Assembly: GCA_041746255.1 (NCBI GenBank)
Contig: JBGTHM010000117.1
Location: 1 to 21,574, forward strand
Direction of reading: 5' to 3'
DNA length: 21,574 nt
From: Fibrobacteria bacterium
GTDB lineage: Bacteria > Fibrobacterota > Fibrobacteria > UBA11236
Shown here: piece after piece, positions 1,117-11,736 of the stretch
How the letters are laid out: each line of letters starts with the position of its first letter
How positions within the stretch are numbered: the stretch's first letter is position 1
Notes under the pieces: generated by a model
Database searches by the model: none
What the model saw: the letters and a program-made list of their open reading frames with translations, nothing else
What the model was told of the DNA's origin: nothing
Program-made: the position numbers and the translations under genes

Positions 1117-2889
1117 ATGCAAAATCCAACCCTGCTGCGCCATTGCCGAAAAATATTCCGCCTGCTACCCCTGATTGTCATCCCGGGTTTTGCCCAAATC
1201 GGAATCAACATCAATCTCGCGGAAAGGGGCGGCACCTTCATAGACCTGGTCCGGGAAAGCTACCGATGGAACATCAACGGAACCGCCATCACATCCGCGA
1301 ATGTCGATGCCCAAGGATGGCCCACCGCCGACGCCGACTTCATCTATGACGCCCGGCCGGTAGCCGAATGGGCTGGACAAATCGACGACCCGGAAAAATA
1401 CCGCATCGATATGAGCGGAACCTACAAATGCGCCTTCACCGGTCGGGCCACCTTGTCCGCCTCCGGTGGACGCATCGTAAATCAAACCTATGTCGACTCC
1501 GATAACCGCACCACCTTTGACCTGGTTATCGACGGACCCCCGGGACCCGGCCATGGCTTCCTCATCCTCAAATTCAGCAACACCGTGCGGACCCCGGGAG
1601 CGCAGGCCGGTTCCGGCATCCGCAATTTGAAAATCCACCGGCCAGGATACCCTCTCGATCACCCCGATGTGTTTGCCGCGCCCTTTATCCAGGCCTTGCT
1701 GGGCATCAATTTCGAAGCCATCCGCTTCATGCCCTTCTCCGGCGCCAACGACGTCGACCCCGTTTACCCCAAGGTTACCCACTGGAATCAGCGGAAAACC
1801 CTTGCGGACGCCTCCCAGGCCCGCATGGAACCTTTGGACAAACTGGACGGCGCCTCCTGGGAACTGGTGATTGCCTTGGGCAACCGTCTGCATAAGGATA
1901 TCTGGATCAACGTTCCCGTCAGCGCGACGGAAGATTATATCCGCCAACTGGCCGCTCTCATTCGCGACGGCCTCGAACCGGCCTTGAACGTTTATGTCGA
2001 AAGCGGCAATGAGGTTTGGAATAACATCTTTCCCCAGCATGCTTACAATCTCGCCCAAGCCGCCGCCCTGGGCATAGGAGAACACGAAAACCATGCGCGC
2101 CGCACGGCCCAACTGGCGGACCTGTTCGGACAGGCTTTCGGACCGGGTTCCCTGAACACCCGGGTGCGCGCCATTCTCTGCAGTCACGCCCCCATGCTGA
2201 AATGGTGGGTGGAACCCATGCTCACCTACCTGGACAAGAACCGAGGTAAACCCTCCGGCTACCTCTATGGCATCTCTTCCCAGGCGTATTTTTCCATCGC
2301 TCCGGATGCCGGGCTGAGCATTCCGGAAATTCTGAGCCGCGCCCGCGCCAATATCCTCGGCCAGATAGACGAAAGCGGCGGGGTCAACCAAGCCAGCCGG
2401 CTGCAATGGGTGCAAAAAGCCGCCCAATGGAACCTGCCCGGCGGGTATTTCATCTACGAAGGGGGAAGCCACCCAATCCTGGGCAGTCAAGCCAATCTGG
2501 GCAATACCATAATGGCCGAACGCGACCCCGAAATGGGAGTGCTGTTAAAACTCAATTACACGGAGGGATTCACGGATGTAGGCGGAAAGCTGGCCATGCA
2601 CTTCCTCTTGAGCTCGGCCTATACTCGCTACGGCTGCTTCGGCCTGACCGACGACATCGGCAAACCCGAAAGAAATTCCAAATACGCGGCGATGCGAGAC
2701 CTCGCCGGCGGCTCTACCACGGTACTGCCGCCCGGTTCCCGAGCTTCGGATACCCGCAACCACAACCTTTATCGCAATAGCCGCAAGCCAGAGGTCAGAA
2801 TCCGCAACGGGGCCGCACACAGGGTATACCAATCCGATTGGTACGACTTAAAGGGGGCTTTTCTGGAAAGGGAGGCTATGCCCGAGTGA
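1117..2889 (+). CDS. Secreted glycoside-hydrolase-like protein (GH-A clan-like TIM barrel; family unassigned)
   Basis: Signal peptide ending GFA-Q; motifs IRFM, WINVP, VYVESGNEVWN (putative acid/base NE) and YEGG (putative nucleophile); C-terminal tail with YDLKG. Confidence 0.7.
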   Translation: MQNPTLLRHCRKIFRLLPLIVIPGFAQIGININLAERGGTFIDLVRESYRWNINGTAITSANVDAQGWPTADADFIYDARPVAEWAGQIDDPEKYRIDMSGTYKCAFTGRATLSASGGRIVNQTYVDSDNRTTFDLVIDGPPGPGHGFLILKFSNTVRTPGAQAGSGIRNLKIHRPGYPLDHPDVFAAPFIQALLGINFEAIRFMPFSGANDVDPVYPKVTHWNQRKTLADASQARMEPLDKLDGASWELVIALGNRLHKDIWINVPVSATEDYIRQLAALIRDGLEPALNVYVESGNEVWNNIFPQHAYNLAQAAALGIGEHENHARRTAQLADLFGQAFGPGSLNTRVRAILCSHAPMLKWWVEPMLTYLDKNRGKPSGYLYGISSQAYFSIAPDAGLSIPEILSRARANILGQIDESGGVNQASRLQWVQKAAQWNLPGGYFIYEGGSHPILGSQANLGNTIMAERDPEMGVLLKLNYTEGFTDVGGKLAMHFLLSSAYTRYGCFGLTDDIGKPERNSKYAAMRDLAGGSTTVLPPGSRASDTRNHNLYRNSRKPEVRIRNGAAHRVYQSDWYDLKGAFLEREAMPE

Positions 2890-2957
2890 CGCGCTTGGCA
2901 GTTTTGGGTAGCAATTTCTTGGCCTTACCCCCTGCCAAGGAGAAATAGAACCTGCAT

Positions 2958-2990
2958 TTGCATAACTTGGCGTATATTGGTATAATATAC
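2958..2990 (+). promoter_or_regulatory. Sigma70 promoter of brnTA with an overlapping operator palindrome; probably a leaderless transcript
   Basis: TTGCAT (2958-63), 17 bp, TATAAT (2981-86) with an extended TG. The inverted repeat GTATATT (2972-78) / AATATAC (2984-90) overlaps the -10. ATG is at 2993 with no Shine-Dalgarno (SD). Confidence 0.75.
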
Positions 2991-2992
2991 AA

Positions 2993-3286
2993 ATGGATGA
3001 GCTCGGAACTCTAGAGGGGTTTGACTGGGACCATGGGAACCAGGATAAAAACTGGGAAGCCCATCAAGTGCAATCGGCCGAGTGTGAAATGATTTTCTTC
3101 AATCAGCCGCTCATAATAATCGATGACCAGAAGCACTCTAAATCCGAATCGCGATTCTATGCATTCGGAAAGACGGATTCAGAAAGAAAGCTGCTTATCG
3201 TTTTTTGCATTCGTAAAAACAAAATAAGAGTGATTTCTGCCCGTGATATGCATAAAAAAGAGAGGGCATTTTATGAGTCCAAATAA
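2993..3286 (+). CDS. brnT: BrnT family type II toxin (RelE-like RNase, DUF497)
   Basis: FDWD..N..KN..H, HS..E.RF...G.T...R.L..VF..R...IRVISAR.M...ER..YE. Confidence 0.92.
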   Translation: MDELGTLEGFDWDHGNQDKNWEAHQVQSAECEMIFFNQPLIIIDDQKHSKSESRFYAFGKTDSERKLLIVFCIRKNKIRVISARDMHKKERAFYESK

Positions 3287-3569
3287 AAAGAAGATTCCCA
3301 ATTTTAAATCTGAAGCTGAAGAACGGGCATTCTGGGATAAGGAAAGCCCTCTTGATTACCTCGATAAAAACAAGGCTAAGAAGGTGAAGCTGGCTAATTT
3401 AAAGCCGTCAACAGAGGTCATTTCTCTCAGGCTTCCGGCTGGACTGCTAAATGATATCAAACTGGTTGCCAATAAGAATGATGTTCCTTACCAGTCTTAT
3501 ATGAAAATAATGCTGGCGGAAAAAATTAAAGAGAGCCTGGCCACTTATTCAACAAGCAAGCCGAAGTAA
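3273..3569 (+). CDS. brnA: BrnA/CopG-family antitoxin with C-terminal ribbon-helix-helix (RHH)
   Basis: Overlaps the brnT end; ATG 3273 after GAGAGG; IPNFKSEAEERAFW, then ISLRLP...IK..A....VPYQSYMK..L.E. Confidence 0.88.
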   Translation: MSPNKKKIPNFKSEAEERAFWDKESPLDYLDKNKAKKVKLANLKPSTEVISLRLPAGLLNDIKLVANKNDVPYQSYMKIMLAEKIKESLATYSTSKPK

Positions 3570-3600
3570 AAAAGACGCAAAGGAAGCCAGTTCCGGTTTT

Positions 3601-4137
3601 TTAAGGGGCATCCCAAACTCCACTGCACCCAGTGTCGGAATGCTTTCCGCAGGCATCGGCCCTTAATTTATTCAAGCTTGATTCAAGGAATGAAGAGACT
3701 TCTTTTTCAAAACTGATTTTATATCCGGTGGAGTCAAAAAATAGATCGGCGACTTCAAAATTATTACATCCAAAAATTAATCGAGGAGGGTGTTTATGAC
3801 CCTCGTTGTGAAGTATTACAATAATTTTACTCAAATCATTGCAGATCCTACAGGATGAGACTGGATATTCACTTATTTCTGATTGTTTTGTCGCAGTTGA
3901 AAAAACCTTTTTCCAAAATGTTAAATCACGGCTATAATAATCAGCGATACATCTCACCTCTTTAACGAAATCAACATCACCAACAATGAAATCCTCATGG
4001 CTATTTTGAATGCTTCCCCCTAACACTCTAATTTTGACATATCCTTCTTTAGAAATGGGTTTCTCTGGAATTGGATCGCAATTACAATTCATCCATGTGC
4101 CGAGAATAACACACAAGAATAATGGGATAGTTCGCAT
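3601..4137 (-). CDS. Hypothetical exported or lipoprotein-like Cys-rich protein
   Basis: 178-aa AT-rich ORF with GGAG RBS and a hydrophobic N-terminus followed by Cys; no recognisable family. Confidence 0.6.
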   Translation of the reverse strand: MRTIPLFLCVILGTWMNCNCDPIPEKPISKEGYVKIRVLGGSIQNSHEDFIVGDVDFVKEVRCIADYYSRDLTFWKKVFSTATKQSEISEYPVSSCRICNDLSKIIVILHNEGHKHPPRLIFGCNNFEVADLFFDSTGYKISFEKEVSSFLESSLNKLRADACGKHSDTGCSGVWDAP

Positions 4138-4189
4138 AAACTTTCTCCGGTCTCTGATTAACCAAAAGGTTTCGTGCGACCCCTGGCCA

Positions 4190-4255
4190 CTAGAGGCGCT
4201 TCAGGCAGCGCTTATAGTCCTTCTTGAACTGATTCGTATAAGCCGGTTGCCACAT
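4190..4255 (-). pseudogene. yafQ: Truncated YafQ/RelE-family toxin (first ~20 codons only)
   Basis: ATG overlaps the dinJ stop (TGATG) and translates to MWQPAYTNQFKKDYKRCLKRL*, matching a YafQ N-terminus (YT.QFKKD.K...KR); stop at 4192-4190. Confidence 0.8.
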
Positions 4256-4515
4256 CAGTCGCTCAGGCTCTTGAACATCTCGTCAGCGTCCTTGAAGCGC
4301 TTGACGGAGTGGCCGGCCTTGGCATCCTTCATGGCTTTGCGGGTAGTGGCGTTAGGAATCCGGACCTCGAAGGGGAGGCCCTCGTTGAGGGCGACCTGCT
4401 TGTAAAATAGGTTGATAGCCGAAGTGGTACTGAGCCCCAACTTCTCAAAAATTTTCTCAACCTGCTCCTTTAGCCGGGAATCGGTCCTGGCCCTAATCAT
4501 CGCTGTTCTGGACAT
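4255..4515 (-). CDS. dinJ: RelB/DinJ family antitoxin
   Basis: IRAR.D..LK.....IF..LGLS.T.AINLF..QV....GLPFEV.IPN..T..A; GAGGTG RBS. Confidence 0.92.
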   Translation of the reverse strand: MSRTAMIRARTDSRLKEQVEKIFEKLGLSTTSAINLFYKQVALNEGLPFEVRIPNATTRKAMKDAKAGHSVKRFKDADEMFKSLSD

Positions 4516-4543
4516 AATTCACCTCTTGGATAGATAAGATAAA

Positions 4544-4563
4544 TGTACCTCATTTGGGATACA
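4544..4563. promoter_or_regulatory. Putative DinJ autoregulatory operator
   Basis: Imperfect palindrome TGTACCTCATTTGGGATACA, overlapping a TACATT -10 candidate on the minus strand about 30-50 bp upstream of dinJ. Confidence 0.55.
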
Positions 4564-4635
4564 AAAGTAAGTGGAGCTTCGAGCTTTCGCCGGGTGGGTG
4601 GTTTAAGCTGGTGGCCGGGCTGGCCCCTAAAAGGG

Positions 4636-4662
4636 TGAATTGTCACCCTGAGACACCGGACA
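4636..4662 (+). repeat. Direct repeat copy 1, resembling an IS3-family terminal inverted repeat
   Basis: TGAATTGTCACCCTGAGACACCGGACA; near-identical to 6556-6580; TG start and GGACA end. Confidence 0.55.
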
Positions 4663-4680
4663 ACTAATTGAGAAGGGGGT

Positions 4681-4876
4681 ATGAGTCGAAATAAAAAGAA
4701 GATTCCCAATTTTAAATCCGAAGCTGAAGAGCGGGCATTCTGGGAAAAGGAAAGCCCTCTTGATTACATCGATAAAAACAAGGCTAAGAAGGTGAAGCTG
4801 GCTAATTTAAAGCCGTCAACCTAGGTCATTTCTCTCGGGCATCCGGCTGGACTGCTAAGAGATATTAAATTTAGTT
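4681..4876 (+). pseudogene. brnA: Second brnA copy; open for 47 codons (4681-4824), then GAG>TAG; homology stops near 4876
   Basis: Near-identical DNA to 3273-3467; strong RBS GAAGGGGGT; TAG at 4822-24 where copy 1 has Glu48. Confidence 0.9.
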
Positions 4877-5047
4877 CTACCAAGGATTCATAGTCCTTCA
4901 TGGTCTTTTCAGAAAGTTTTTGTTCCACCCCCGAAAAGTTGGCCTAAGCCAGTAAACGACCCAAGCCGAATCCAAGGAAACCCCCAGAATGGCCCACGTT
5001 ACTTCAAACCCTCCGGGAAAGTCCCTGACCTCGCTAAAAAGGTTTTA

Positions 5048-5314
5048 GTGGTAGGAGCGTATTCGGATTTGATGTATCGAGTCAGCATGGCTTACCTGAG
5101 GGACAATATTTCCAAGTCGGTTATAACCGAAAATTACACCGGGAACAAAGAAGAAATTGGTGAAAATGAAAAACGCATACTCTTTCTTGGGTATGCCGGA
5201 GGCGAAAATGTATTCAAATACTTTGCGAATAATTCCATGGAAACCATGAAAAAACATAAGGAAATTAAACAGTCAATTAAGACTTTGAAGCCTGTCAAAC
5301 CCGGTTCGAATTAA
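5048..5314 (+). CDS. Small hypothetical protein or gene remnant (alternative ATG at 5072)
   Basis: AT-rich 80-88-codon ORF, co-oriented with the next gene; no motif recognised. Confidence 0.35.
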   Translation: MVGAYSDLMYRVSMAYLRDNISKSVITENYTGNKEEIGENEKRILFLGYAGGENVFKYFANNSMETMKKHKEIKQSIKTLKPVKPGSN

Positions 5315-5371
5315 TTCGGATTCTATATTCACCCCCAATCCACCCGAAACTCAGAAATTCCTGGAAATGAT

Positions 5372-6520
5372 ATGGAATCCTATAATTCTCGGATAGGAAA
5401 GAAACTTGCTGTTTTTATCGCTACCGTCCTTTTTTTACTTTTTTTGCCAATCGGTATTGCGAAATTATTTTATGGCATAATCCCCGATACCGCCCACACC
5501 ATAAATCCCCATTACCTGACATCCGACGGGCAGCAATTTCGTTTGCAAGGGTTTAAAGAAAATGTGAATGTAAAATCCGCCGTGTTATCGCGTGCCAACA
5601 CACCGAAGGGCCTCGGGAAAAAAATCCTTTTTTACGACCATGAGGGACGATGGTATGTTTTTCAGAACGACACCGGAGAAGTAGAAGATCTCACGCTAAG
5701 GCTGCATACATCATCTCGAAAAGCCAGGTTGAAATCCAATGTTACCGTCACCGGTTATTCTTCGATGGGCTATTCACATAAAACCACATTCAGTGATGGC
5801 ACCTACATTCAAACCAAGCCCGGCGTGGTCGGCGCCATGCAAGTATTCGCGCCCATGGAATCGCAGGTTGATATTGAGGACTTGCTTACCTCCATGGATA
5901 TCTTCCAGGAACGCGAAGATCTGACTCGTAGTATGAAGTGGCTTATTAAGAATAAATTCCCGGTCGGAATTGCCTTCCTTCTGACCTATTCTTTAATTTG
6001 GGTATTGGGAATTCTGCTTGGAGGAGAATGGGCCGCAAAGGTCACTCCTGAAAAAGGAACTCCCGTAAAAGCGCTGAAAGATTTAAAAAATGAGATTCTG
6101 GCGATGAATGCGCTCGACATCCCCTTTAAGTTCCTGGTTACCGGCCCCGAAACCCTTTCGGTAGTTTGGAGGGAGGATGAAAAGTGGAAGGAACTGCTGG
6201 AGGATTGGACATCCGACACCCGATATAGTTTTAACATTCGATTCCGGGAGAAGAACCATTCCGTCTCCGTGATGGAAACCTTCCGAACCGTCCATGAACA
6301 TAGGGGGTTTTTGAAGTTTTTCATATTTGCATACTTTTCCCGGTCGATATCGATTTTCGTCTATAGGAAGGATATGCCCTGTGCGCTTAAATACAACTCG
6401 GGAAAACTGGTGTTTACCGGCAGGAAATTCACAGCGGACCTCCAAGAGGTCAGAAATCCGCTGATTGAAATGTGCGTTTTCAATGGATGGTCCTATAATC
6501 CAAAGGTCACGTTCCTATAA
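5372..6520 (+). CDS. Hypothetical membrane protein
   Basis: 382-aa ORF with hydrophobic segments at about aa 12-34 and 197-217 separating two soluble domains. Confidence 0.75.
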   Translation: MESYNSRIGKKLAVFIATVLFLLFLPIGIAKLFYGIIPDTAHTINPHYLTSDGQQFRLQGFKENVNVKSAVLSRANTPKGLGKKILFYDHEGRWYVFQNDTGEVEDLTLRLHTSSRKARLKSNVTVTGYSSMGYSHKTTFSDGTYIQTKPGVVGAMQVFAPMESQVDIEDLLTSMDIFQEREDLTRSMKWLIKNKFPVGIAFLLTYSLIWVLGILLGGEWAAKVTPEKGTPVKALKDLKNEILAMNALDIPFKFLVTGPETLSVVWREDEKWKELLEDWTSDTRYSFNIRFREKNHSVSVMETFRTVHEHRGFLKFFIFAYFSRSISIFVYRKDMPCALKYNSGKLVFTGRKFTADLQEVRNPLIEMCVFNGWSYNPKVTFL

Positions 6521-6555
6521 ACCGGCAGCATACCCTCAATGTTCCTCCCTCCAGC

Positions 6556-6580
6556 TGAACTGTCACCCTAACACCGGACA
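6556..6580 (+). repeat. Direct repeat copy 2, IS3-family-like end
   Basis: TGAACTGTCACCCTAACACCGGACA. Confidence 0.55.
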
Positions 6581-6780
6581 ATTCAACAATCCGGCCATGG
6601 CTTTATGCCCTTAACCTACGCCAACAACGTCGACCTCAAGGTTATCCATTGGTTCCCATTTCCCCACAAATCGAAATCCCGGACTCAGGAAGAATGGATA
6701 TCGGAGGCACCGTAGGTTGAAAAAAATTGCGTAATTTGAGAAGGATGCCCAAATTTTGACCAATTTGAAGGGTTTCGAGG

Positions 6781-6817
6781 TGGACGAGAGTGTAAAGTAA
6801 AGTGTAAATTAGAATCT
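6781..6817 (+). promoter_or_regulatory. Candidate leaderless promoter with a tandem operator-like repeat
   Basis: TGGACG (6781-86), 18 bp, TAAATT (6805-10), 7 nt, ATG. AGTGTAAA is repeated at 6789-96 and 6801-08. No SD. Confidence 0.45.
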
Positions 6818-7606
6818 ATGCCCCAGCAATTACCTCGCATCAAATTGAAAAGCTCCCCACTGTCTCTGGTTTTGGTACAGGCAAGATTTCCATCGCTAAT
6901 CGATTTCGAGGCCAAACAGGATCTTCTGCGCAGGCCCCTGGAAAAGCTGGGATATGTGGTATTTCGCCCTGGACAAGAATCAGTAGTTCGCTTTGTATCC
7001 GGTAAGCCGGAATCCGTCGAATTCTCGCGTTGGGATTTCCTGGATAAATCGTTGGCATGGAATGTCGTTGTGACGAAAGAGTACCTGCTGCTAATGACCA
7101 CGCAATACGATGTCTTTGAAGATTTCCAGCAAAGATGGGCCAATGTCTTGGAAGCAGCGAAGTCATTGGAAATTCCCATCGTAGAGAGGTTGGGGTTACG
7201 CTACCTTGATGTGATTGAACCAGGCTCGCAAGAAAGTGTAGCCGATTACCTGGACTCGAGTTTCTCCGGCCCCAGCCTGAAATGGGATGATGCCCTCGAA
7301 TTGACGGGCCATCATGTCGTCAGCGAGATAAAATCGAAAACCGGTAAGCTGGTGATCCGACGATATCCCAAAGGCGGAAAGGGATCGTTACCCTCCGATC
7401 TGCATGCGCCACATATTAGGGCAAGGTCTGTCAAGGCTGATGCGGCATTCCTCGACTTCGATCATTTTACCGAAGAGATTCAAGATTTCGAAGTGGATTC
7501 TTTGGTTCGAAAAACCGGTGAGTTACATCATAATACCGATTTGGCTTTCCGCAACATCATCACCCCGCATGCCAAGGCCGTATGGGGATGGGAGGAGCTC
7601 ACATGA
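6818..7606 (+). CDS. TIGR04255-family protein
   Basis: PL..VL.Q.RFP N-terminus, TT.Y..FE.F, RLGLRYLD and LDFD motifs; 262 aa. Confidence 0.8.
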   Translation: MPQQLPRIKLKSSPLSLVLVQARFPSLIDFEAKQDLLRRPLEKLGYVVFRPGQESVVRFVSGKPESVEFSRWDFLDKSLAWNVVVTKEYLLLMTTQYDVFEDFQQRWANVLEAAKSLEIPIVERLGLRYLDVIEPGSQESVADYLDSSFSGPSLKWDDALELTGHHVVSEIKSKTGKLVIRRYPKGGKGSLPSDLHAPHIRARSVKADAAFLDFDHFTEEIQDFEVDSLVRKTGELHHNTDLAFRNIITPHAKAVWGWEELT

Positions 7607-8226
7607 GTGAGGTGGAGATTCAAGCCAAAGGAAGTGGATCCGAGAACTATTTGCCCGATGAAGCCACATTGAAAACTTTTTTTGAATCTTATTGGCCCTA
7701 TTCGCAGGCTACAGGCAGCGTTTACTGGAAACCGATTTCATTGAATCCCACTACAGGGACTGTATGGAGCGTTTCTGAAAAAGATGAAGCGAAACGCCTG
7801 ATCAAGGAAATTCAGGATAAATTGAGTTTGACTATCGGGGAAATTTCCAAGCTGTTGGCCGTTAGCCGTCAAGCCGTCCATAGTTGGATGCGCGGTGGGG
7901 CCATAAGTCCGACAAAACGAAAAAATCTGGAACAGCTGCATGAGTGGGCGCAAATTTGGGCCGAAAAAAGTGGTAACCAGTTCCCTGACACCAGTAGTTG
8001 GTTCCCCATCCGCGGCGAATCCATACTGAATATTATCGCTAAAGAGGGCGCGTCCAGTCCGGAAGGAAAGCGGGCCTGGGAAGCCTTTATGGCGGAACAA
8101 TTGGAGACTCTCGAGAGACGGGCTAAAATTCCTTCCGCTAAGGAAATTCTTGAAAGAATGGGTGCTTCCATGCCTTCCGAGGAAGGACAGGAAAGAACCC
8201 TGCGCCGCAATTTAGGCAGAATATGA
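7603..8226 (+). CDS. XRE/Cro-like HTH protein with an N-terminal aromatic/Ser/Thr-rich extension
   Basis: ATGA overlap with the upstream stop and a GGAGGAG RBS; LSLTIGEISKLLAVSRQAVHSWMRG helix-turn-helix. Confidence 0.8.
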   Translation: MSEVEIQAKGSGSENYLPDEATLKTFFESYWPYSQATGSVYWKPISLNPTTGTVWSVSEKDEAKRLIKEIQDKLSLTIGEISKLLAVSRQAVHSWMRGGAISPTKRKNLEQLHEWAQIWAEKSGNQFPDTSSWFPIRGESILNIIAKEGASSPEGKRAWEAFMAEQLETLERRAKIPSAKEILERMGASMPSEEGQERTLRRNLGRI

Positions 8227-8230
8227 GCGG

Positions 8231-9004
8231 ATGGGTCACGAGTTGGACACGATTGACATTGATAGTACGTGGAGGCAAGGCGCCATCCTGCAGGCGTCAT
8301 GCGTAGCGGCGTTATGTCCAATTCTTGATGGTGATCATTATGGAATAATCGTTTCCCATGATTGCGATGTTGTCAGCAGGTCCTTGGAAAAAGAACCGGT
8401 TTTTGAGTGGGTTCCGGCTAGAGAAATCCCCAAACCGGATTCACTGAAAGAGCGAGGTCGCAACCCTCGTGAATTGCACCTGCGTCATGCCCTCGAAGGA
8501 TCTGTCCACCTCGAATTGAAAATAGTAGAACGGCAATTCCATTCCCGAAAGGAATTGCTGCCGAGAAGACCATTGGGGGTATTGGCTCCCCACCACGTGG
8601 AAACACTTCGTGGTTGGATGGGGGGGCGATATAATCGGTCAGCCTTTCCGGATGCTTTTAATGAAAGACGTAGGCGGGTTTCCAAGGAAATCCGAAAGCT
8701 GTTTGATTCGCCAGAGGGCCAATTGGTTTCAAGTCTTTATGTTTTGCTGAACACAAAAAATGAACTTGAAGAGGGAAGCGATTATAGAATTGCAATTCGA
8801 GGTATTTTGACTGATTCCGAAAATTTACCAGTTGCCCGACAAGCAGCGGAAAAGATGATGGAGGAACTGACCAAAAGGCTCGAGAAATGTTCTGGTATAC
8901 AAGTTGAAGATTCGCGGGCAATACTTGCTAAAGACTTTTCGCTGGCTGAAGCAAGATTCTACGACCCATTCGACGATTGGGACGATTTGAGCCGGGTGGA
9001 ATAG
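8231..9004 (+). CDS. Hypothetical protein (WRQG...SHDCD...EP..E...R..FP motifs), possibly a MazF/PemK-like fold plus a C-terminal domain
   Basis: 257 aa, starting 4 nt after the HTH stop. RQGAIL...GIIVSHD...LGVL resembles the PemK pattern RGDI...LVLS...IG.L. The fold assignment is inferred. Confidence 0.7.
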   Translation: MGHELDTIDIDSTWRQGAILQASCVAALCPILDGDHYGIIVSHDCDVVSRSLEKEPVFEWVPAREIPKPDSLKERGRNPRELHLRHALEGSVHLELKIVERQFHSRKELLPRRPLGVLAPHHVETLRGWMGGRYNRSAFPDAFNERRRRVSKEIRKLFDSPEGQLVSSLYVLLNTKNELEEGSDYRIAIRGILTDSENLPVARQAAEKMMEELTKRLEKCSGIQVEDSRAILAKDFSLAEARFYDPFDDWDDLSRVE

Positions 9005-9061
9005 GAAGAGGAGCCTGTGGAATTCCGCATGGCAGATACTGTGCCTCAACGGGTCCGCAAA

Positions 9062-9293
9062 CTCGGAATACCAATCCGAATCGCGATTTTATGTATAAAA
9101 AAGAGAGGGGGGTATGAGTCCAAATAAAAAGGAGATTCCCAATTATAAATCCGAAGATGAAGAACGGGCATTCTGGGATAAGGAAAGCCCTCTTGATTAC
9201 CTCGATAAAAACAAGGCTAAGAAGGTGAAGCTGGCTAATTTAAAGCCGTTAACAGAGGTCATAACAAGCCGAAGTAAAAAGGGTCCCAGGTAA
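9062..9293 (+). pseudogene. brnA: Third, internally deleted brnTA copy; retains a 59-aa ORF (9114-9293) whose first 50 aa are the BrnA N-terminus
   Basis: Segments match 3141-3164, 3247-3421 and 3551-3572 in order; RBS GAGAGGGGGGT. Confidence 0.88.
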
Positions 9294-9783
9294 AGTGCGT
9301 ACAGACCTGCAGCAATGTATTGATCCGGCGTGCTGACCAGTACCGTGGTGGATTTCACATCCGGTTCTCGCATCTAAATGCAAAGGAACCAGATTTCATC
9401 CCAAGAAGGGGTTTCTCGTTTCAAATTTGCAGGGACTTCGCAAATTCCAACTTATCTTGTCTAATCGTTTGGTAATTCATCAGGTGCTCTGCTCTTCCAA
9501 TTTAGCCATTACCTAACGAGGTCTGATCTCCACCTATCCTAAGGCCTAAAATCAATCCTCCCCCTGGTACATTCGACAATTTTTAAACCTGAGGGTAATG
9601 TACAGAACTTCTTGTTTTACTTTTCTCTTTCTGAGTAAAATACAGGCTTCCATATTTTACCGTGAACTAACCACCCGGCTCGTTCAAATTATCCAAGATG
9701 CTTCCTAAAATCGACTTGCATTGCCCGTACCCGGATCTGCCGCCCCGATAAAACAGAAGAAAATTCGACCTTACGGAATAACA

Positions 9784-9801
9784 ATAATGAATTATCATTA
9801 T
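9784..9801. promoter_or_regulatory. Fur-family (Fur/Zur-like) operator
   Basis: ATAATGA-ATTA-TCATTAT palindrome overlapping TATAAT (9799-9804), 27 bp before the ATG of a metal-binding gene. Confidence 0.6.
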
Positions 9802-9828
9802 AATTTGAACCCCAAATCCGGAGGCATC

Positions 9829-11736
9829 ATGCCTATTTATCGCTCCTTTTTCCTACAGCTCATTCCACTTGCCGCATTGACCGTTTCAGCGAATACCGTC
9901 AATTTGACGGGCAAGGTTGTCGACCATGACGAAAAATTTCCCGTCGTCGGCGCCCAGGTCAGCCTGAAAACGGCAAAACTTTCCACGACAACAGGTAACA
10001 ACGGGCTTTTCGCCCTTGTCGGAGAGCCGGCCTCCCTTTTTCCGGGGAAACCGGGACAGTCTTTCGCGCCCCGCTGGCAGCATGGACTCATGTTGGTTAC
10101 GGCCCAGAGTCGAGACATGGCGACACTTTCGGTCCATGATTTGCAGGGCCGTCAAATCGGCATAACCCAGTGGCTCGCCGTAGCCGGAACCGAGTATACC
10201 TTAAACCCCAGGGCTCTGTTGGGTGGAATCCCGACGCAAGGCGTGCTTTTGGCGCGCATGCGCCTGGGTAAGCAGGAACACGTGTTTCGCATGACCGGAA
10301 ACGGCGTCGCAGGTCCCGCTTATTTTGCCAATGAAGCGCCTCGGCAAAGGGGTCCATTGGCGCGCCATTCGGCCGTTACCGTGGTAGACACTTTGGTGGT
10401 CTCCAAAGAAGGTTTCGAAACCGTGCAAATACCGATTTCCAACTATGTAGGCGAATTGGAAGACATCGAATTGGAAGAGGAAAAGCATGTCGCCCTCGGA
10501 CGCATGTTGATTGCGGATGGTGTTTCCGCCTACTTGAAAGTGTTGGACCTGGAAACCGGAACGGTACTGGACTCTTTCCAGGTTAGCGCGGCGGGTGCGG
10601 CGGTCTATACCACGGAAGATGGTCGATTCGGATTCGCGGTGCAAGGCGGAATCAACGGGAAGGTCAATGTCGTCTATAGCGGCCTTTACGTAGAGCCCCA
10701 CGGCGATCATGTGCATCTGGAAAAAGTTGCGCCTAAGTTGCTGCCTTGGGAACTCACCGGCGTGAAACCCGTTCATTTCGTATCCCATCATGGAGAAACC
10801 GCCCTCTTTTTCGACGGGGAACGCGATACGACCCTTGTTCCCGGCCAGGCGCCTTCCCAAGTCCATTTCGTCAAGGAATCCGAGTTCTTGATGACCGAGC
10901 CCACCATCAAGAAATTCACATTGGCGGGACCTCAGCATGGCGTCGCCCTCGCGGGAAACAGCGGACGCTATCTGGTTTCGGTTCCGGATTCGCGCTTCGC
11001 GGATTTTACCAGCACCGGTAGCACGCCTTTCGGCCTGAAGGTCTATGACGCGAATTTCGCCGAACTTCAGGACTTTTCCGACACCACGAATTTTGCCCGC
11101 TCCTGCCGAGGTTTGCACGGCGAGGCCGCCAACGATATCCATGTAATCTTCGGCTGCAACGGCACCTTGGATTCCGGCGCGCTGGTTTTGTCCTGGAACC
11201 CGGGAGCAAACGAGTATACCTCCAAAAAAATCAAGTATCCGCGGGATGGTCTCAACCGCGGCGCCGGAACGGTCAAAGGACATGCGGAGCGCAACTTCTT
11301 TTTGGGTAACCTGGGCGGTAATCATCTCGCGCGATTCCGCGTTGAGGCCGACTCTTTACTCGACTCCGACATTGTCGACCTGGGCGCGGCGCTTGGTGGA
11401 TTCGAATTTGAACGCGAACATGGTGAGCATGCGGTTGTCCTTACCCGGGACGGGAAGCTGCATGTCTTCGATGTTAAAACCGGATGGAACAATAAGAGCG
11501 AAATTCAGTTATGGGACAATGCCGCTTCGAATCGCTGGGAGACTGGAAAACGCGTTCCCAAGCTGGTAACCGGTCCGGGACGCGCCTATGTCAGCGATCC
11601 GCATGAAGGCAAGGTCTATGAAATCGACATTGAGCATGCAGAGGTTGTGCGCACGATATCGCTGCCCGGCCAACCTTGGAATATGGCCGTATTCGGATGG
11701 TACGAAGTCTTCGGAGAAAATACCGGGCACCATTAA
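9829..11736 (+). CDS. Secreted AztD-like zinc-binding beta-propeller with an N-terminal carboxypeptidase-regulatory-like/sorting module
   Basis: GGAGG RBS before ATG 9829; signal peptide ending VSA; His motifs PHGDHVH, PVHFVSHH, QHGVA and CRGLHGEA; YVSDP..G.V..ID propeller end. Confidence 0.72.
   Translation: MPIYRSFFLQLIPLAALTVSANTVNLTGKVVDHDEKFPVVGAQVSLKTAKLSTTTGNNGLFALVGEPASLFPGKPGQSFAPRWQHGLMLVTAQSRDMATLSVHDLQGRQIGITQWLAVAGTEYTLNPRALLGGIPTQGVLLARMRLGKQEHVFRMTGNGVAGPAYFANEAPRQRGPLARHSAVTVVDTLVVSKEGFETVQIPISNYVGELEDIELEEEKHVALGRMLIADGVSAYLKVLDLETGTVLDSFQVSAAGAAVYTTEDGRFGFAVQGGINGKVNVVYSGLYVEPHGDHVHLEKVAPKLLPWELTGVKPVHFVSHHGETALFFDGERDTTLVPGQAPSQVHFVKESEFLMTEPTIKKFTLAGPQHGVALAGNSGRYLVSVPDSRFADFTSTGSTPFGLKVYDANFAELQDFSDTTNFARSCRGLHGEAANDIHVIFGCNGTLDSGALVLSWNPGANEYTSKKIKYPRDGLNRGAGTVKGHAERNFFLGNLGGNHLARFRVEADSLLDSDIVDLGAALGGFEFEREHGEHAVVLTRDGKLHVFDVKTGWNNKSEIQLWDNAASNRWETGKRVPKLVTGPGRAYVSDPHEGKVYEIDIEHAEVVRTISLPGQPWNMAVFGWYEVFGENTGHH

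Follow-up and report, generated by a model that had tools for sequence, protein, structure and literature searches.

MazF, Kid and ToxN are established binders of short single-stranded RNA motifs. The catalytic set of MazF consists of Arg/Thr residues, and MazE-type antitoxins are AbrB-like proteins. MazF-like proteins also occur in systems of other composition. According to the portion of the report drawn on here, the CalpL-CalpT-CalpS system associates a type III CRISPR-associated protease, a MazF-like anti-sigma factor and a sigma factor of ECF-like type (10.1101/2024.05.08.593097). In type II Gabija, a split MazF-like domain of GajC is the presumed defence effector together with the GajB helicase, as far as the consulted part of the publication describes it (PMC13069673).

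This work addresses an operon of three genes carried by a stretch of 21,574 nucleotides from a Fibrobacteria bacterium (assembly GCA_041746255.1, contig JBGTHM010000117.1), hereafter called the window. Two results are new, namely the conservation of a tandem repeat in front of the operon and the predicted docking of the tail of the second protein on the third one.

Organization and setting of the operon

As the first-pass annotation of the window had stated, the three genes are co-oriented and tightly joined (positions 6818-9004; Table 1). Indeed, the stop codon of gene 1 and the start codon of gene 2 share an ATGA at 7603-7606, GGGAGGAG is located 6-7 nt upstream of the ATG of gene 2, and a gap of 4 nt separates the stop codon of gene 2 (8224-8226) from the ATG of gene 3. 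Because other genomes carry conserved homologues in an unchanged order, the three ORFs are considered, on sequence grounds, to be real genes. The annotation also gave the operon a promoter candidate of its own; a sigma-70 scan of the region upstream of gene 1 found no promoter. By eye, a weak TGGACG-18 nt-TAAATT pair (8/12) can be seen in this region and may be a candidate promoter.

Table 1. Coordinates in the window of the genes, protein regions and repeat of the operon
Feature	Position	Strand	Size or residues	Description
Tandem direct repeat	6789-6808	+		Operator-like; 2x AGTGTAAA, 12-nt period
Gene 1	6818-7606	+	262 aa	TIGR04255 family protein
Gene 2	7603-8226	+	207 aa	HTH protein
Gene 2, HTH	7792-7923	+	residues ~64-107	
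Gene 2, C-terminal tail	8107-8223	+	residues 169-207	Predicted docking on gene 3
Gene 3	8231-9004	+	257 aa	
Gene 3, N-terminal domain	8231-8641	+	residues 1-137	MazF/CcdB/Kid-type fold
Gene 3, C-terminal alpha/beta domain	8645-8980	+	residues ~139-250	Predicted platform for the gene-2 tail

The description of the surroundings as rich in toxin-antitoxin genes, with a brnTA remnant downstream, proved correct. An intact brnT/brnA pair (2993-3569), a RelB antitoxin gene (4255-4515, minus strand) and two N-terminal fragments of BrnA (CopG_antitoxin; 4681-4824 and 9114-9293) lie in a stretch whose GC content is 0.40-0.49 (~3000-9500) versus 0.52-0.60 in its flanks, and a repeated segment begins downstream of the module at 9044. 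An IS-like end, which had been placed at 6556, was not supported: when compared with the 4.59-Mb genome, the intergenic segment 6521-6817 found no match but itself, and a search for inverted repeats in 2500-10000 found none. A six-frame search of this genome gave a single copy of TIGR04255.

The TIGR04255 protein

The assignment of gene 1 to TIGR04255 was confirmed. It matches the NCBIfam model with 98.5 bits (cut-off 30; E 5.5e-28) over positions 1-251 of the 252 of the profile and is, by this comparison, a full-length member of the family. It has no Pfam match at E <= 1, including to SecB, in line with the earlier description of the module as devoid of SecB; likewise, no match was obtained in PHROGs or among the sequences of solved structures. 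The AF2 model (pLDDT 93.2, pTM 0.89) displays a duplicated alpha+beta fold made of two tandem beta-alpha-beta4-alpha (TBP-like) repeats. Its matches to TBP, AdoMetDC, Med18/20 and guanidino-kinase-like proteins (PDB Foldseek, VIA wide, BFVD) are weak, with low TM or Z <= 7.8, and do not allow a family to be named. The role of sensor or chaperone that the annotation suggested for gene 1 gained no support. Comparison across cassette types shows two invariant residues, Y97 and D213, and conservation of R124, R128 and D215 in at least 90% of the proteins.

The MazF-fold protein and its relatives

The proposal that gene 3 is PemK/MazF-like stands for the fold and fails for the family. The AF2 model (pLDDT 89.4) was compared with solved structures by two programs. 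Foldseek against the PDB listed MazF and CcdB chains exclusively (TM by target 0.56-0.69; the best with E 1.2e-3 and probability 1.00). In VIA-align, the top 11 are MazF, Kid and CcdB and the 12th is CptN (Z 10.6-7.9, rmsd 2.8-3.9, 92-110 residues aligned), the matches spanning residues ~7-139 of the model. Residues ~11-137 of gene 3 are thus modelled as a MazF/CcdB-type fold. The MazF and Kid rows have Z 10.6-8.0, CcdB (1vub_A) reaches Z 9.7, less than 1 below the best MazF, and CptN has Z 7.9; since CcdB (9.7) ties with MazF (10.6), the fold does not single out one type of activity.

At the sequence level, gene 3 has no match to PemK_toxin (PF02452) in Pfam-A at E <= 1, its sole match there being DUF6046 (E 0.11), and no match in NCBIfam. 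As no family match exists, it is the fold that links gene 3 to MazF. Moreover, its 257 aa are about twice the size of a single-domain MazF (~100-120 aa), and they include a second alpha/beta domain, for which the fold matches are weak (MafI2, Z 6.3; MNT-like proteins, Z 5-6; C-terminal domains of CDF proteins, Z 5-5.7). The gene-3 profile gave only chance-level rows (E >= 0.025) against the sequences of solved structures, the only match in PHROGs is phrog_34320 (E 2.4e-4), of unknown function in that database, and the ESM Atlas returned only unnamed clusters. The N-terminal domain has a strictly conserved site with polar residues and a cysteine; its conserved residues are W14, Q16, G17, H43-D44-C45-D46, E55, E59 and G76-R77-N78-P79-R80.

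Two assignments suggested by the structural neighbours were considered. For a CcdB system, gene 3 has the Z of 9.7 given above, and gene 2 has no CcdA match and only HTH matches. A type III ToxIN/CptIN system, in which antitoxin RNA repeats form a tandem array directly upstream of the toxin gene, was rejected, as no such array was detected beside gene 3 when 2500-10000 was searched for repeats; the sole tandem repeat, 2 x 8 nt, is in front of gene 1, 1.4 kb upstream of gene 3.

The HTH protein and its predicted contact with gene 3

Gene 2 comprises a variable N-terminus, the HTH and a conserved C-terminal region. Its own match to HTH_17 (E 2.9e-4) is weaker than the Pfam cut-off; among 47 members of its family, 33 match HTH_23, 33 HTH_17 and 31 HTH_3, so that gene 2 is, by its family, recognized as an HTH protein. 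The role of HTH antitoxin and autorepressor that it had been given is partly supported, the HTH being found, the binding to gene 3 predicted and the autoregulation consistent with the repeat described below.

Predictions of the gene 2-gene 3 complex gave ipSAE values of 0.74, 0.77 and 0.76, versus 0.00 for the best control, with contacts agreeing at >=91% between runs and a partner pLDDT >=68. In a benchmark, 116 of 157 solved complexes attained this mark, as did 2 of 215 mismatched pairs. In the predicted docking, gene 2 uses its C-terminal tail and gene 3 its C-terminal domain, through residues 129 and 169-207 of gene 2 and residues 138, 168-188 and 226-246 of gene 3. Multimer modelling thus predicts the binding but places the contact on the extra domain and leaves the MazF-like half uncovered; because the contact misses this half, the model does not explain neutralization.

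Conservation and mobility of the three genes

A search of 185,579 species genomes found 174 relatives of gene 3, of which the best 80 were kept. In these 80 loci, spread over many phyla, and after profile iteration, gene 3 is directly preceded by a homologue of gene 2 in 77, and a homologue of gene 1 is present directly upstream in 76. The exceptions include loci truncated at contig ends (L016, L043 and L062) or with fragmented ORFs (L063 and L070). By a heuristic search, the first in-frame start of gene 2 is at most 25 nt from the stop of gene 1 in 72 of 75 loci. Furthermore, over 2554 pairs, the identities of one protein rise and fall with those of the other two (Spearman 0.74, 0.71 and 0.66). 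The three genes travel as one obligate unit across phyla.

The relatives of gene 3 are 235-314 aa long and belong to an unnamed family of at least 2837 cluster representatives. Most copies of the triplet are chromosomal. A separate plasmid search found it on 11 plasmid records, with IS elements, integrase or prophage tail genes as neighbours, and one copy is located at the edge of a prophage. Its distribution is patchy: the gene is absent from a genome of the same genus (G265), only 24 of the 296 genomes from the phylum contain TIGR04255, and the Klebsiella copy of the triplet has no DNA match in complete genomes of E. coli.

A tandem repeat conserved with the operon

The tandem repeat reported in front of gene 1 was found there and in many relatives. 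In the window, AGTGTAAA occurs twice, at 6789-6796 and 6801-6808, the second copy ending 10 nt before the ATG of gene 1; at least two matches occur anywhere in 8 of 100 shuffles. The motif TGTAA-N7-TGTAA is present once (6791-6807), and at least once in 4 of 100 shuffles. Among the 72 loci compared, the exact motif precedes gene 1 in 47, with no match on either strand of the remaining 1.52 Mb of locus DNA. When up to one mismatch is allowed, it is found in 65 of the 72 loci, versus 16 matches in 1.52 Mb. The consensus of the repeat across loci is aaGTGTAAaGT.aAGTGTAAaGT.

The motif is carried by all three plasmid loci and by five of the seven cassettes of the window type from the same phylum; in the Acinetobacter copy, gene 1 is not preceded by an exact match. 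The motif is missing from all 20 other TIGR04255 loci. The tandem repeat is a conserved element found only with cassettes that carry genes 2 and 3. This restricted occurrence matches what is expected from autoregulation and makes the repeat a putative operator.

Defence genes in the neighbourhood and status in databases

Proximity of the triplet to defence islands was assessed in 35 loci from the PADLOC matches at E <= 1e-20 among the four nearest ORFs. As a raw count, 13-15 of these loci have such neighbours, two of the 15 looking generic, and 20 have none. Examples include BREX PglZ/BrxD, ThsB, HmaB/HmaC, AbiEi, DrmD and PD-T4-6; one copy (L060) lies between HmaC and HmaB and another (L001) adjoins BREX. 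Several flanks consist of housekeeping genes (thiC, dnaE, gyrB, asd, tRNA synthetases).

The module does not correspond to a named or candidate system of PADLOC-DB 2.0.0 (2023), where nothing at E <= 1 was obtained for gene 1 or gene 3 and the sole match of gene 2 is mad1, across the HTH (E 1.5e-4); eight other TIGR04255 proteins have no match in it either. Literature searches found no paper on TIGR04255 (IPR026349, CHP04255) or on a MazF-like three-gene anti-phage system of this kind in the library searched.

Sister cassettes headed by TIGR04255

TIGR04255 also heads other cassettes of three genes, with different downstream pairs. Their middle proteins are small and acidic, and their third genes encode proteins that share the QG..., S-x-x-CD motif of gene 3 or, in cassette L096, a PtuB-like HNH nuclease (PADLOC E 1.3e-21). 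TIGR04256, considered as a possible partner family of TIGR04255, was rejected as a general partner: it occurs in 91 of 296 genomes and, among the places listed, adjoins TIGR04255 only in G070.

Kinship between the gene-3 family (A1) and two third-gene families with a 'QGD...S-N-T-C-D' pattern (A3 and A4) was not borne out at the profile level, the matches being non-significant (E 0.044 and 0.032, probabilities ~1%). Between A3 and A4, by contrast, the profiles do show kinship (95%, E 2.3e-8). A bridging protein, L098_d2, weakly matches A1, A3 and A4 (E 5e-4, 4e-4 and 2e-3), and the sole named structural neighbour of the Atlas model of an A3 member is a PemK_toxin cluster (TM 0.47/0.45). The connection of A1 with A3/A4 through these two observations is only a lead.

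It is conceivable, although we regard it as somewhat doubtful, that many three-gene conflict systems make up a large undescribed superfamily in which TIGR04255 serves as common trigger or sensor subunit while the middle protein and the effector are swapped as a pair. The window operon would be the branch with an HTH adaptor and the TGTAA repeat, and other branches would combine small acidic proteins with PtuB-like HNH proteins or with MazF/PemK-fold proteins bearing an invariant Cys-Asp, whose domain might have a thiol-dependent enzymatic activity and not be a classical RNase.

Possible function of the operon

The best explanation, which taken as a whole has in our opinion about an even chance of being right, is that the operon is a horizontally mobile, translationally coupled unit of three genes that forms an undescribed module of the tripartite toxin-antitoxin or abortive-defence type. 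Gene 3 would be the growth-inhibiting effector, which might poison gyrase or act as a nuclease or a thiol-dependent enzyme. Its tethering and restraint would fall to gene 2, which as a DNA-binding protein would also bind the tandem repeat and thereby repress the operon. Gene 1 would be an accessory subunit coupling this pair to a trigger, for example phage infection or loss of the element; this role is proposed because several cassettes invariably begin with TIGR04255, which has a conserved Arg/Asp face on its TBP-like sheet.

The main rival, which we consider rather unlikely, is a regulatory switch resembling that of CalpT, in which gene 3 would be an anti-factor holding gene 2 through its C-terminal domain until gene 1 senses a signal and releases it, the output being transcription from promoters with TGTAA repeats. 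A precedent exists, as the MazF-like two-domain protein CalpT (DUF2080) is described, in the part of the report used here, as a regulator, not a toxin, bound to the ECF-like sigma factor CalpS within a tripartite system (10.1101/2024.05.08.593097). The predicted position of the HTH protein on the non-MazF domain of gene 3 and the DNA motif that accompanies genes 2 and 3 are also in its favour. However, DUF2080 is not matched by gene 3, nor Lon or SAVED by gene 1. Sigma region 2 is absent among the 25 families listed, of 58, for the relatives of gene 2, of which 5 of 47 weakly match Sigma70_r4_2, and the Pfam scan of the 17 window ORFs detected no cas gene. With the motif confined, in the loci examined, to the front of the operon, no regulon is visible. 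The strict conservation of H-D-C-D, E and R-N-P-R in the MazF-like half suggests an activity and not a mere scaffold, and sister cassettes end in nuclease-type genes. A pure addiction module, which would stabilize plasmids or islands by post-segregational killing with no role in phage defence and in which gene 1 would stabilize or regulate as in toxin-antitoxin-chaperone systems, seems less probable still. It would account for the plasmid copies, the adjoining integrases, IS elements and recombinases, the other toxin-antitoxin genes around the window copy and the TA-like, autoregulatory anatomy of the operon, but not for the predominance of chromosomal copies or for the many copies inside known defence loci, such as those beside BREX or between HmaC and HmaB, and gene 1 lacks the SecB match of such chaperones.

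The repeat itself may be read in another way, to which we give little credence: the two GUGUAAAGU copies would form an RNA element within a 5' leader of small length, and the MazF-fold protein would bind or cut it for translational autoregulation, gene 2 having another role. Action in the mRNA instead of as a DNA operator is suggested because only 7-11 nt separate the end of the second repeat from the start codon of gene 1 in several loci, where it abuts or merges with a GGAG in six. Besides, the motif accompanies gene 3 no less than gene 2, and MazF-fold proteins bind short motifs in single-stranded RNA. Nevertheless, the distance between the repeat and the start deduced from the profile is 50-120 nt elsewhere, a TTG common in the consensus ~9-10 nt before repeat 1 would suit a promoter that the repeats overlap, and the co-conserved HTH protein is a simpler binder.

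If the toxin-antitoxin or abortive-defence reading is right, it would give a function to TIGR04255, curated as a 'sporadically distributed' family, explain the unnamed gene-3 family and add to the toxin-antitoxin and anti-phage repertoire a new three-part architecture in which a MazF-fold effector has its own docking domain. The operator-like repeat shared across phyla, the predicted interface between tail and domain and the few invariant residues are handles for testing it. If TIGR04255 were in addition the common trigger for several effector types, it would offer a new guilt-by-association entry to defence systems.

Comparison with known systems

The operon shares with CalpL-CalpT-CalpS, as far as the cited part of its description goes, a three-part organization and a subunit with a MazF-like and a second domain complexed with an HTH subunit, the complex being predicted here. 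It differs by the lack of DUF2080, Lon/SAVED and sigma region 2 matches, the lack of a CRISPR context and the presence of TIGR04255 as the third subunit. As in type II Gabija GajC (PMC13069673, in the part considered), a MazF-fold domain would act as an anti-phage effector outside classical MazEF; unlike in the GajC described there, this domain is not split by a helical insertion, and its partners are different and include no helicase. Likeness to Septu and to retron Ec78 concerns not the window operon but the sister cassette L096, which ends in a PtuB-like HNH protein; there, TIGR04255 and an unrelated middle gene, and no PtuA ATPase, precede the HNH gene.

The TAC system of M. tuberculosis and CmdTAC resemble the operon, within the limits of the accounts used, by three co-transcribed genes and a third protein that modulates a toxin-antitoxin pair. 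In the operon, however, this component is a TIGR04255 protein with a TBP-like model rather than a SecB-like one, it is encoded first, and it is common to cassettes with unrelated downstream pairs.

MazEF/PemIK (Kid-Kis) differs from the operon in several respects. Gene 3 has no sequence match to PF02452, carries an added alpha/beta domain within its 257 aa and conserves H-D-C-D and R-N-P-R, which differ from the Arg/Thr catalytic set of MazF. Its partner is a 207-aa HTH protein instead of a MazE-type antitoxin, with a predicted contact on the added domain, and an obligate TIGR04255 gene comes first. Both nevertheless have in common the fold of residues ~11-137 of gene 3 (Z 10.6-8.0 against chains of MazF and Kid), a partner that is encoded just upstream and is predicted to bind by its C-terminal tail, an operon with an operator-like repeat, and a mobile, sporadic distribution.

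Organization of the module and its surroundings

The three ORFs are arranged as described in the first-pass annotation: gene 1 (TIGR04255 protein) and gene 2 (HTH protein) overlap by an ATGA at 7603-7606, with GGGAGGAG immediately 5' of it, and 4 bases separate the stop codon of gene 2 from the ATG of gene 3 (MazF-fold protein). Upstream of gene 1, AGTGTAAA is found at 6789 and 6801, its only two copies in the window. The module is present once in the genome.

Features of the module and of its surroundings in the window
Feature	Position	Strand	Remarks
Gene 1	6818-7606	+	262 aa ORF
Gene 2	7603-8226	+	207 aa ORF
Gene 3	8231-9004	+	257 aa ORF
brnT/brnA pair	2993-3569		intact
BrnA N-terminal fragment	4681-4824		member of a 190-nt repeat family
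BrnA N-terminal fragment	9114-9293		member of the same 190-nt repeat family
RelB antitoxin gene	4255-4515	-	Pfam E 3.8e-17

GC content is reduced from about 3000 to 9500. The surroundings agree in part with the first-pass annotation. The IS-like end is not supported: the intergenic region 6521-6817 has no second copy in the 4.59-Mb genome, and a search of 2500-10000 showed no inverted repeats. A brnA-containing segment is present in three copies (2802-3461, 4680-4869 and 9044-9302), the degenerate ones sharing 94% and 82% identity with the intact copy and keeping only the first ~47 codons of BrnA. This pattern suggests that brnTA-like sequence flanking the island was repeatedly a site of insertion or recombination. 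No recognisable RelE-type toxin gene adjoins the RelB gene; Pfam has no match for the ORF next to it on the minus strand (3601-4137). Two long ORFs within or beside the low-GC stretch, 5372-6520 (+, 382 aa) and 1117-2889 (+, 590 aa), also lack Pfam matches; the former, immediately 5' of the module, encodes hydrophobic segments.

Conservation, neighbours and mobility of the triplet

The 45 gene-3 relatives retrieved by a word-indexed search are all unnamed and devoid of Pfam domains. Searching 1.84 billion cluster representatives with a profile gave 2837 relatives at E <= 1e-3, of which 1155 reach E <= 1e-30; the best 150 are 235-314 aa long. In a set with a single genome for each species, a gene-3 relative is encoded in 174 stretches; the best 80 of these, retained as the locus set, belong to Myxococcota, Planctomycetota, Acidobacteriota, Pseudomonadota, Deinococcota, Actinomycetota, Spirochaetota and others.

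The three genes form a unit in these genomes, as the initial proposal of a tripartite system supposed. Upstream on the same strand, single-sequence phmmer recognized gene 1 in 72 and gene 2 in 30 of the 80 loci, and profile iteration brought these counts to 76 and 77, respectively. Contig ends explain the misses at L016, L043 and L062; L063 retains only fragments, and genes 1 and 2 are fragmented in L070. According to a start-codon heuristic applied to 75 loci, gene 2 starts at most 25 nt from the stop codon of gene 1 in 72, overlaps of 4 or 10 nt being the commonest. The identities of the three proteins co-vary pairwise (Spearman 0.74, 0.71 and 0.66; 2554 pairs, 75 loci), values that are only descriptive because related sequences are not independent.

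The neighbour survey covered the two nearest ORFs on each side, chosen heuristically, at the 35 loci with at least 3 kb of flank (140 ORFs). Pfam neighbours include BREX PglZ/BrxD with a KAP NTPase, ThsB-TIR, TIR with a serine recombinase, HepT with a recombinase, Fic, PIN, DDE transposase, AAA_21 and DUF499/DUF1156; housekeeping genes are also numerous. The proximity to defence genes anticipated by the first-pass annotation is found as PADLOC neighbours (E <= 1e-20) in 15 of the 35 loci as a raw count, two of them looking generic (ABC ATPase, sigma-54 activator). In two loci, the triplet lies between HmaC and HmaB (L060) or between PDC-S49 and PglZ/BrxD (L001).

A gene-3 relative is carried by 11 of 72,556 plasmid records. 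On Robbsia, Vibrio and Klebsiella plasmids, the triplet is annotated as 'TIGR04255 family protein / helix-turn-helix transcriptional regulator / hypothetical protein' and adjoins IS transposases, an integrase or prophage tail genes; in an Acinetobacter record filed as phage, it is located at a prophage edge. TIGR04255 is present in 24 of the 296 genomes of the window's phylum and absent from the single other genome of the genus. The evidence points to a mobile conflict module.

A tandem repeat specific to cassettes carrying genes 2 and 3

The tandem repeat is a conserved cis-element. Among 72 loci with enough upstream DNA, TGTAA-N7-TGTAA occurs in 47 of the upstream zones (159 nt, of which the last 9 lie in gene 1), versus no occurrence in the remaining 1,523,380 nt, both strands counted; with one mismatch allowed, 65 of the 72 loci match, versus 16 background matches. 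The consensus, aaGTGTAAaGT.aAGTGTAAaGT, is invariably on the operon strand, often with a TTG about 9-10 nt 5' of it. The repeat precedes gene 1 in all three plasmid loci and in 5 of the 7 window-type cassettes of the phylum; no exact match was found upstream of gene 1 in the Acinetobacter triplet. It is missing from all 20 TIGR04255 loci with other downstream genes, so that whatever binds it accompanies genes 2 and 3 rather than TIGR04255. With its 12-nt period, such a direct repeat would suit an HTH of the winged-helix or excisionase type that binds head to tail. As the repeat is close to the start codon of gene 1 in some loci, it could also act at the RNA level. In six Myxococcota-type loci (L020, L022, L027, L028, L038 and L053), the second TGTAA is directly continuous with GGAG(G), at 7-10 nt from the ATG, so that repeat and ribosome-binding site region overlap.

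The three proteins

Gene 1 encodes a full-length TIGR04255 protein (98.5 bits, cut-off 30), a family of which a literature search found no mention. Its model (pLDDT 93.2, pTM 0.89) comprises two beta-alpha-beta4-alpha repeats. Structure searches returned TBP, AdoMetDC, Med18/20, RnlA NRD and guanidino-kinase domains, with Z <= 7.8 or low TM, and no family could be named from these matches. When TIGR04255 proteins from several kinds of cassette are compared, Y97 and D213 never vary, and conservation is at least 90% at R124, R128 and D215; in the model, these residues alternate along two strands and may form a face for ligand binding or catalysis.

Taken singly, gene 2 gives only sub-threshold HTH matches (HTH_17, E 2.9e-4). 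At the family level, its earlier identification as an HTH protein is borne out, with HTH_23, HTH_17 and HTH_3 matched by 33, 33 and 31 of 47 members. The HTH follows an unalignable N-terminus and precedes a conserved C-terminal part. The sole conserved feature of the N-terminal third is G-T-G-[GS] (ATGS in the window, about 7690-7710), possibly a site of cleavage or contact.

No Pfam, NCBIfam or PADLOC family matches gene 3. In its model (pLDDT 89.4, 41-row alignment), residues about 11-137 have a MazF/CcdB/Kid fold. All Foldseek matches listed are MazF or CcdB chains, the best E being only 1.2e-3, and an independent aligner run on 48,161 chains filled its first 12 rows with MazF, Kid, CcdB and CptN (Z 10.6-7.9) before Z fell to 6.3. 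The MazF-like character initially proposed thus stands for the fold but not for membership of PF02452. An alpha/beta domain follows at residues about 139-250; its matches (Z 5-6.3) reflect common arrangements only. Conserved columns, mostly in the MazF-like half, are W14, Q16, G17, H43, D44, C45, D46, E55, P56, E59, G76-R80, R101, R106, W129, R133, Y134 and R136. The conserved cysteine starting helix 44-48 of the model could be a nucleophile. By itself, the predicted fold would suit an RNase like MazF, a gyrase poison like CcdB (Z 9.7) or another activity.

Genes 2 and 3 are predicted to bind each other, with ipSAE of 0.74, 0.77 and 0.76 versus 0.00 in all three controls, at least 91% of contacts common to the runs and partner pLDDT of at least 68. 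Of 157 solved complexes, 116 reach the binding mark, as do 2 of 215 mismatched pairs; these counts apply only roughly to this pair because the analysis used its own alignments. No similar complex is known, and a pass through memorised structures is therefore unlikely. In the predicted interface, the tail of gene 2 (residues 169-207) packs against the C-terminal-domain sheet of gene 3 (residues 168-188 and 226-246), leaving the MazF-like half outside.

Sister cassettes led by TIGR04255

Genes 2 and 3 lie downstream at 6 of the 27 other TIGR04255 places in the phylum, and gene 2 stands at a contig end in one more. Most remaining places carry two other tightly spaced co-directional genes, of several unrelated families (for example L093:1426-3136, L097:543-2208, L095:1483-3151 and L096:302-2214), without Pfam, NCBIfam or PADLOC names. 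One type encodes a small acidic middle protein, then a 190-210-aa protein whose QGD... and S-N-T-C-D motifs resemble the QGA...S-H-D-C-D of gene 3. The third genes of the types represented by L097 and L111 have 1103 and 67 relatives, respectively; these types are related to each other at 95% probability and linked to gene 3 by motif register and weak scores only, with one PemK-like structural neighbour (TM 0.47). In another type, the middle protein has 165-180 aa and the third 140-155 aa. The last gene of one cassette encodes a PtuB-like HNH nuclease (PADLOC E 1.3e-21), and type I restriction genes adjoin two of the sister cassettes. Middle proteins of one sister type, at L101:2162-2743, L102:975-1514 and L095:2229-2738, weakly match the C-terminal part of the PADLOC candidate PDC-M32A (best E 2.4e-5). 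There is a real chance that TIGR04255-led cassettes constitute a new class.

Proposed mechanism and comparison with known systems

The chance that the module works as a toxin-antitoxin or abortive-defence system of three parts is roughly even. In that reading, gene 3 would act as the toxic effector, tethered through the tail of gene 2 and presumably neutralised by it; gene 2 would repress the operon at the tandem repeat, and gene 1 may be the subunit coupling the system to a trigger. The main rival, a CalpT-like switch, appears distinctly less probable. It draws on a report describing CalpT as a MazF-like domain joined to DUF2080 and bound to the sigma-like CalpS within a three-part system (10.1101/2024.05.08.593097). 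The families defining Calp have no match in this operon.

Assignment to TAC, ToxIN, Calp or any PADLOC 2.0.0 system was rejected, in keeping with the undescribed status first given to the operon. Gene 3 would work at most 'like' a toxin of the MazF/CcdB fold. Type II Gabija provides a precedent for a MazF-like effector outside MazEF (PMC13069673).
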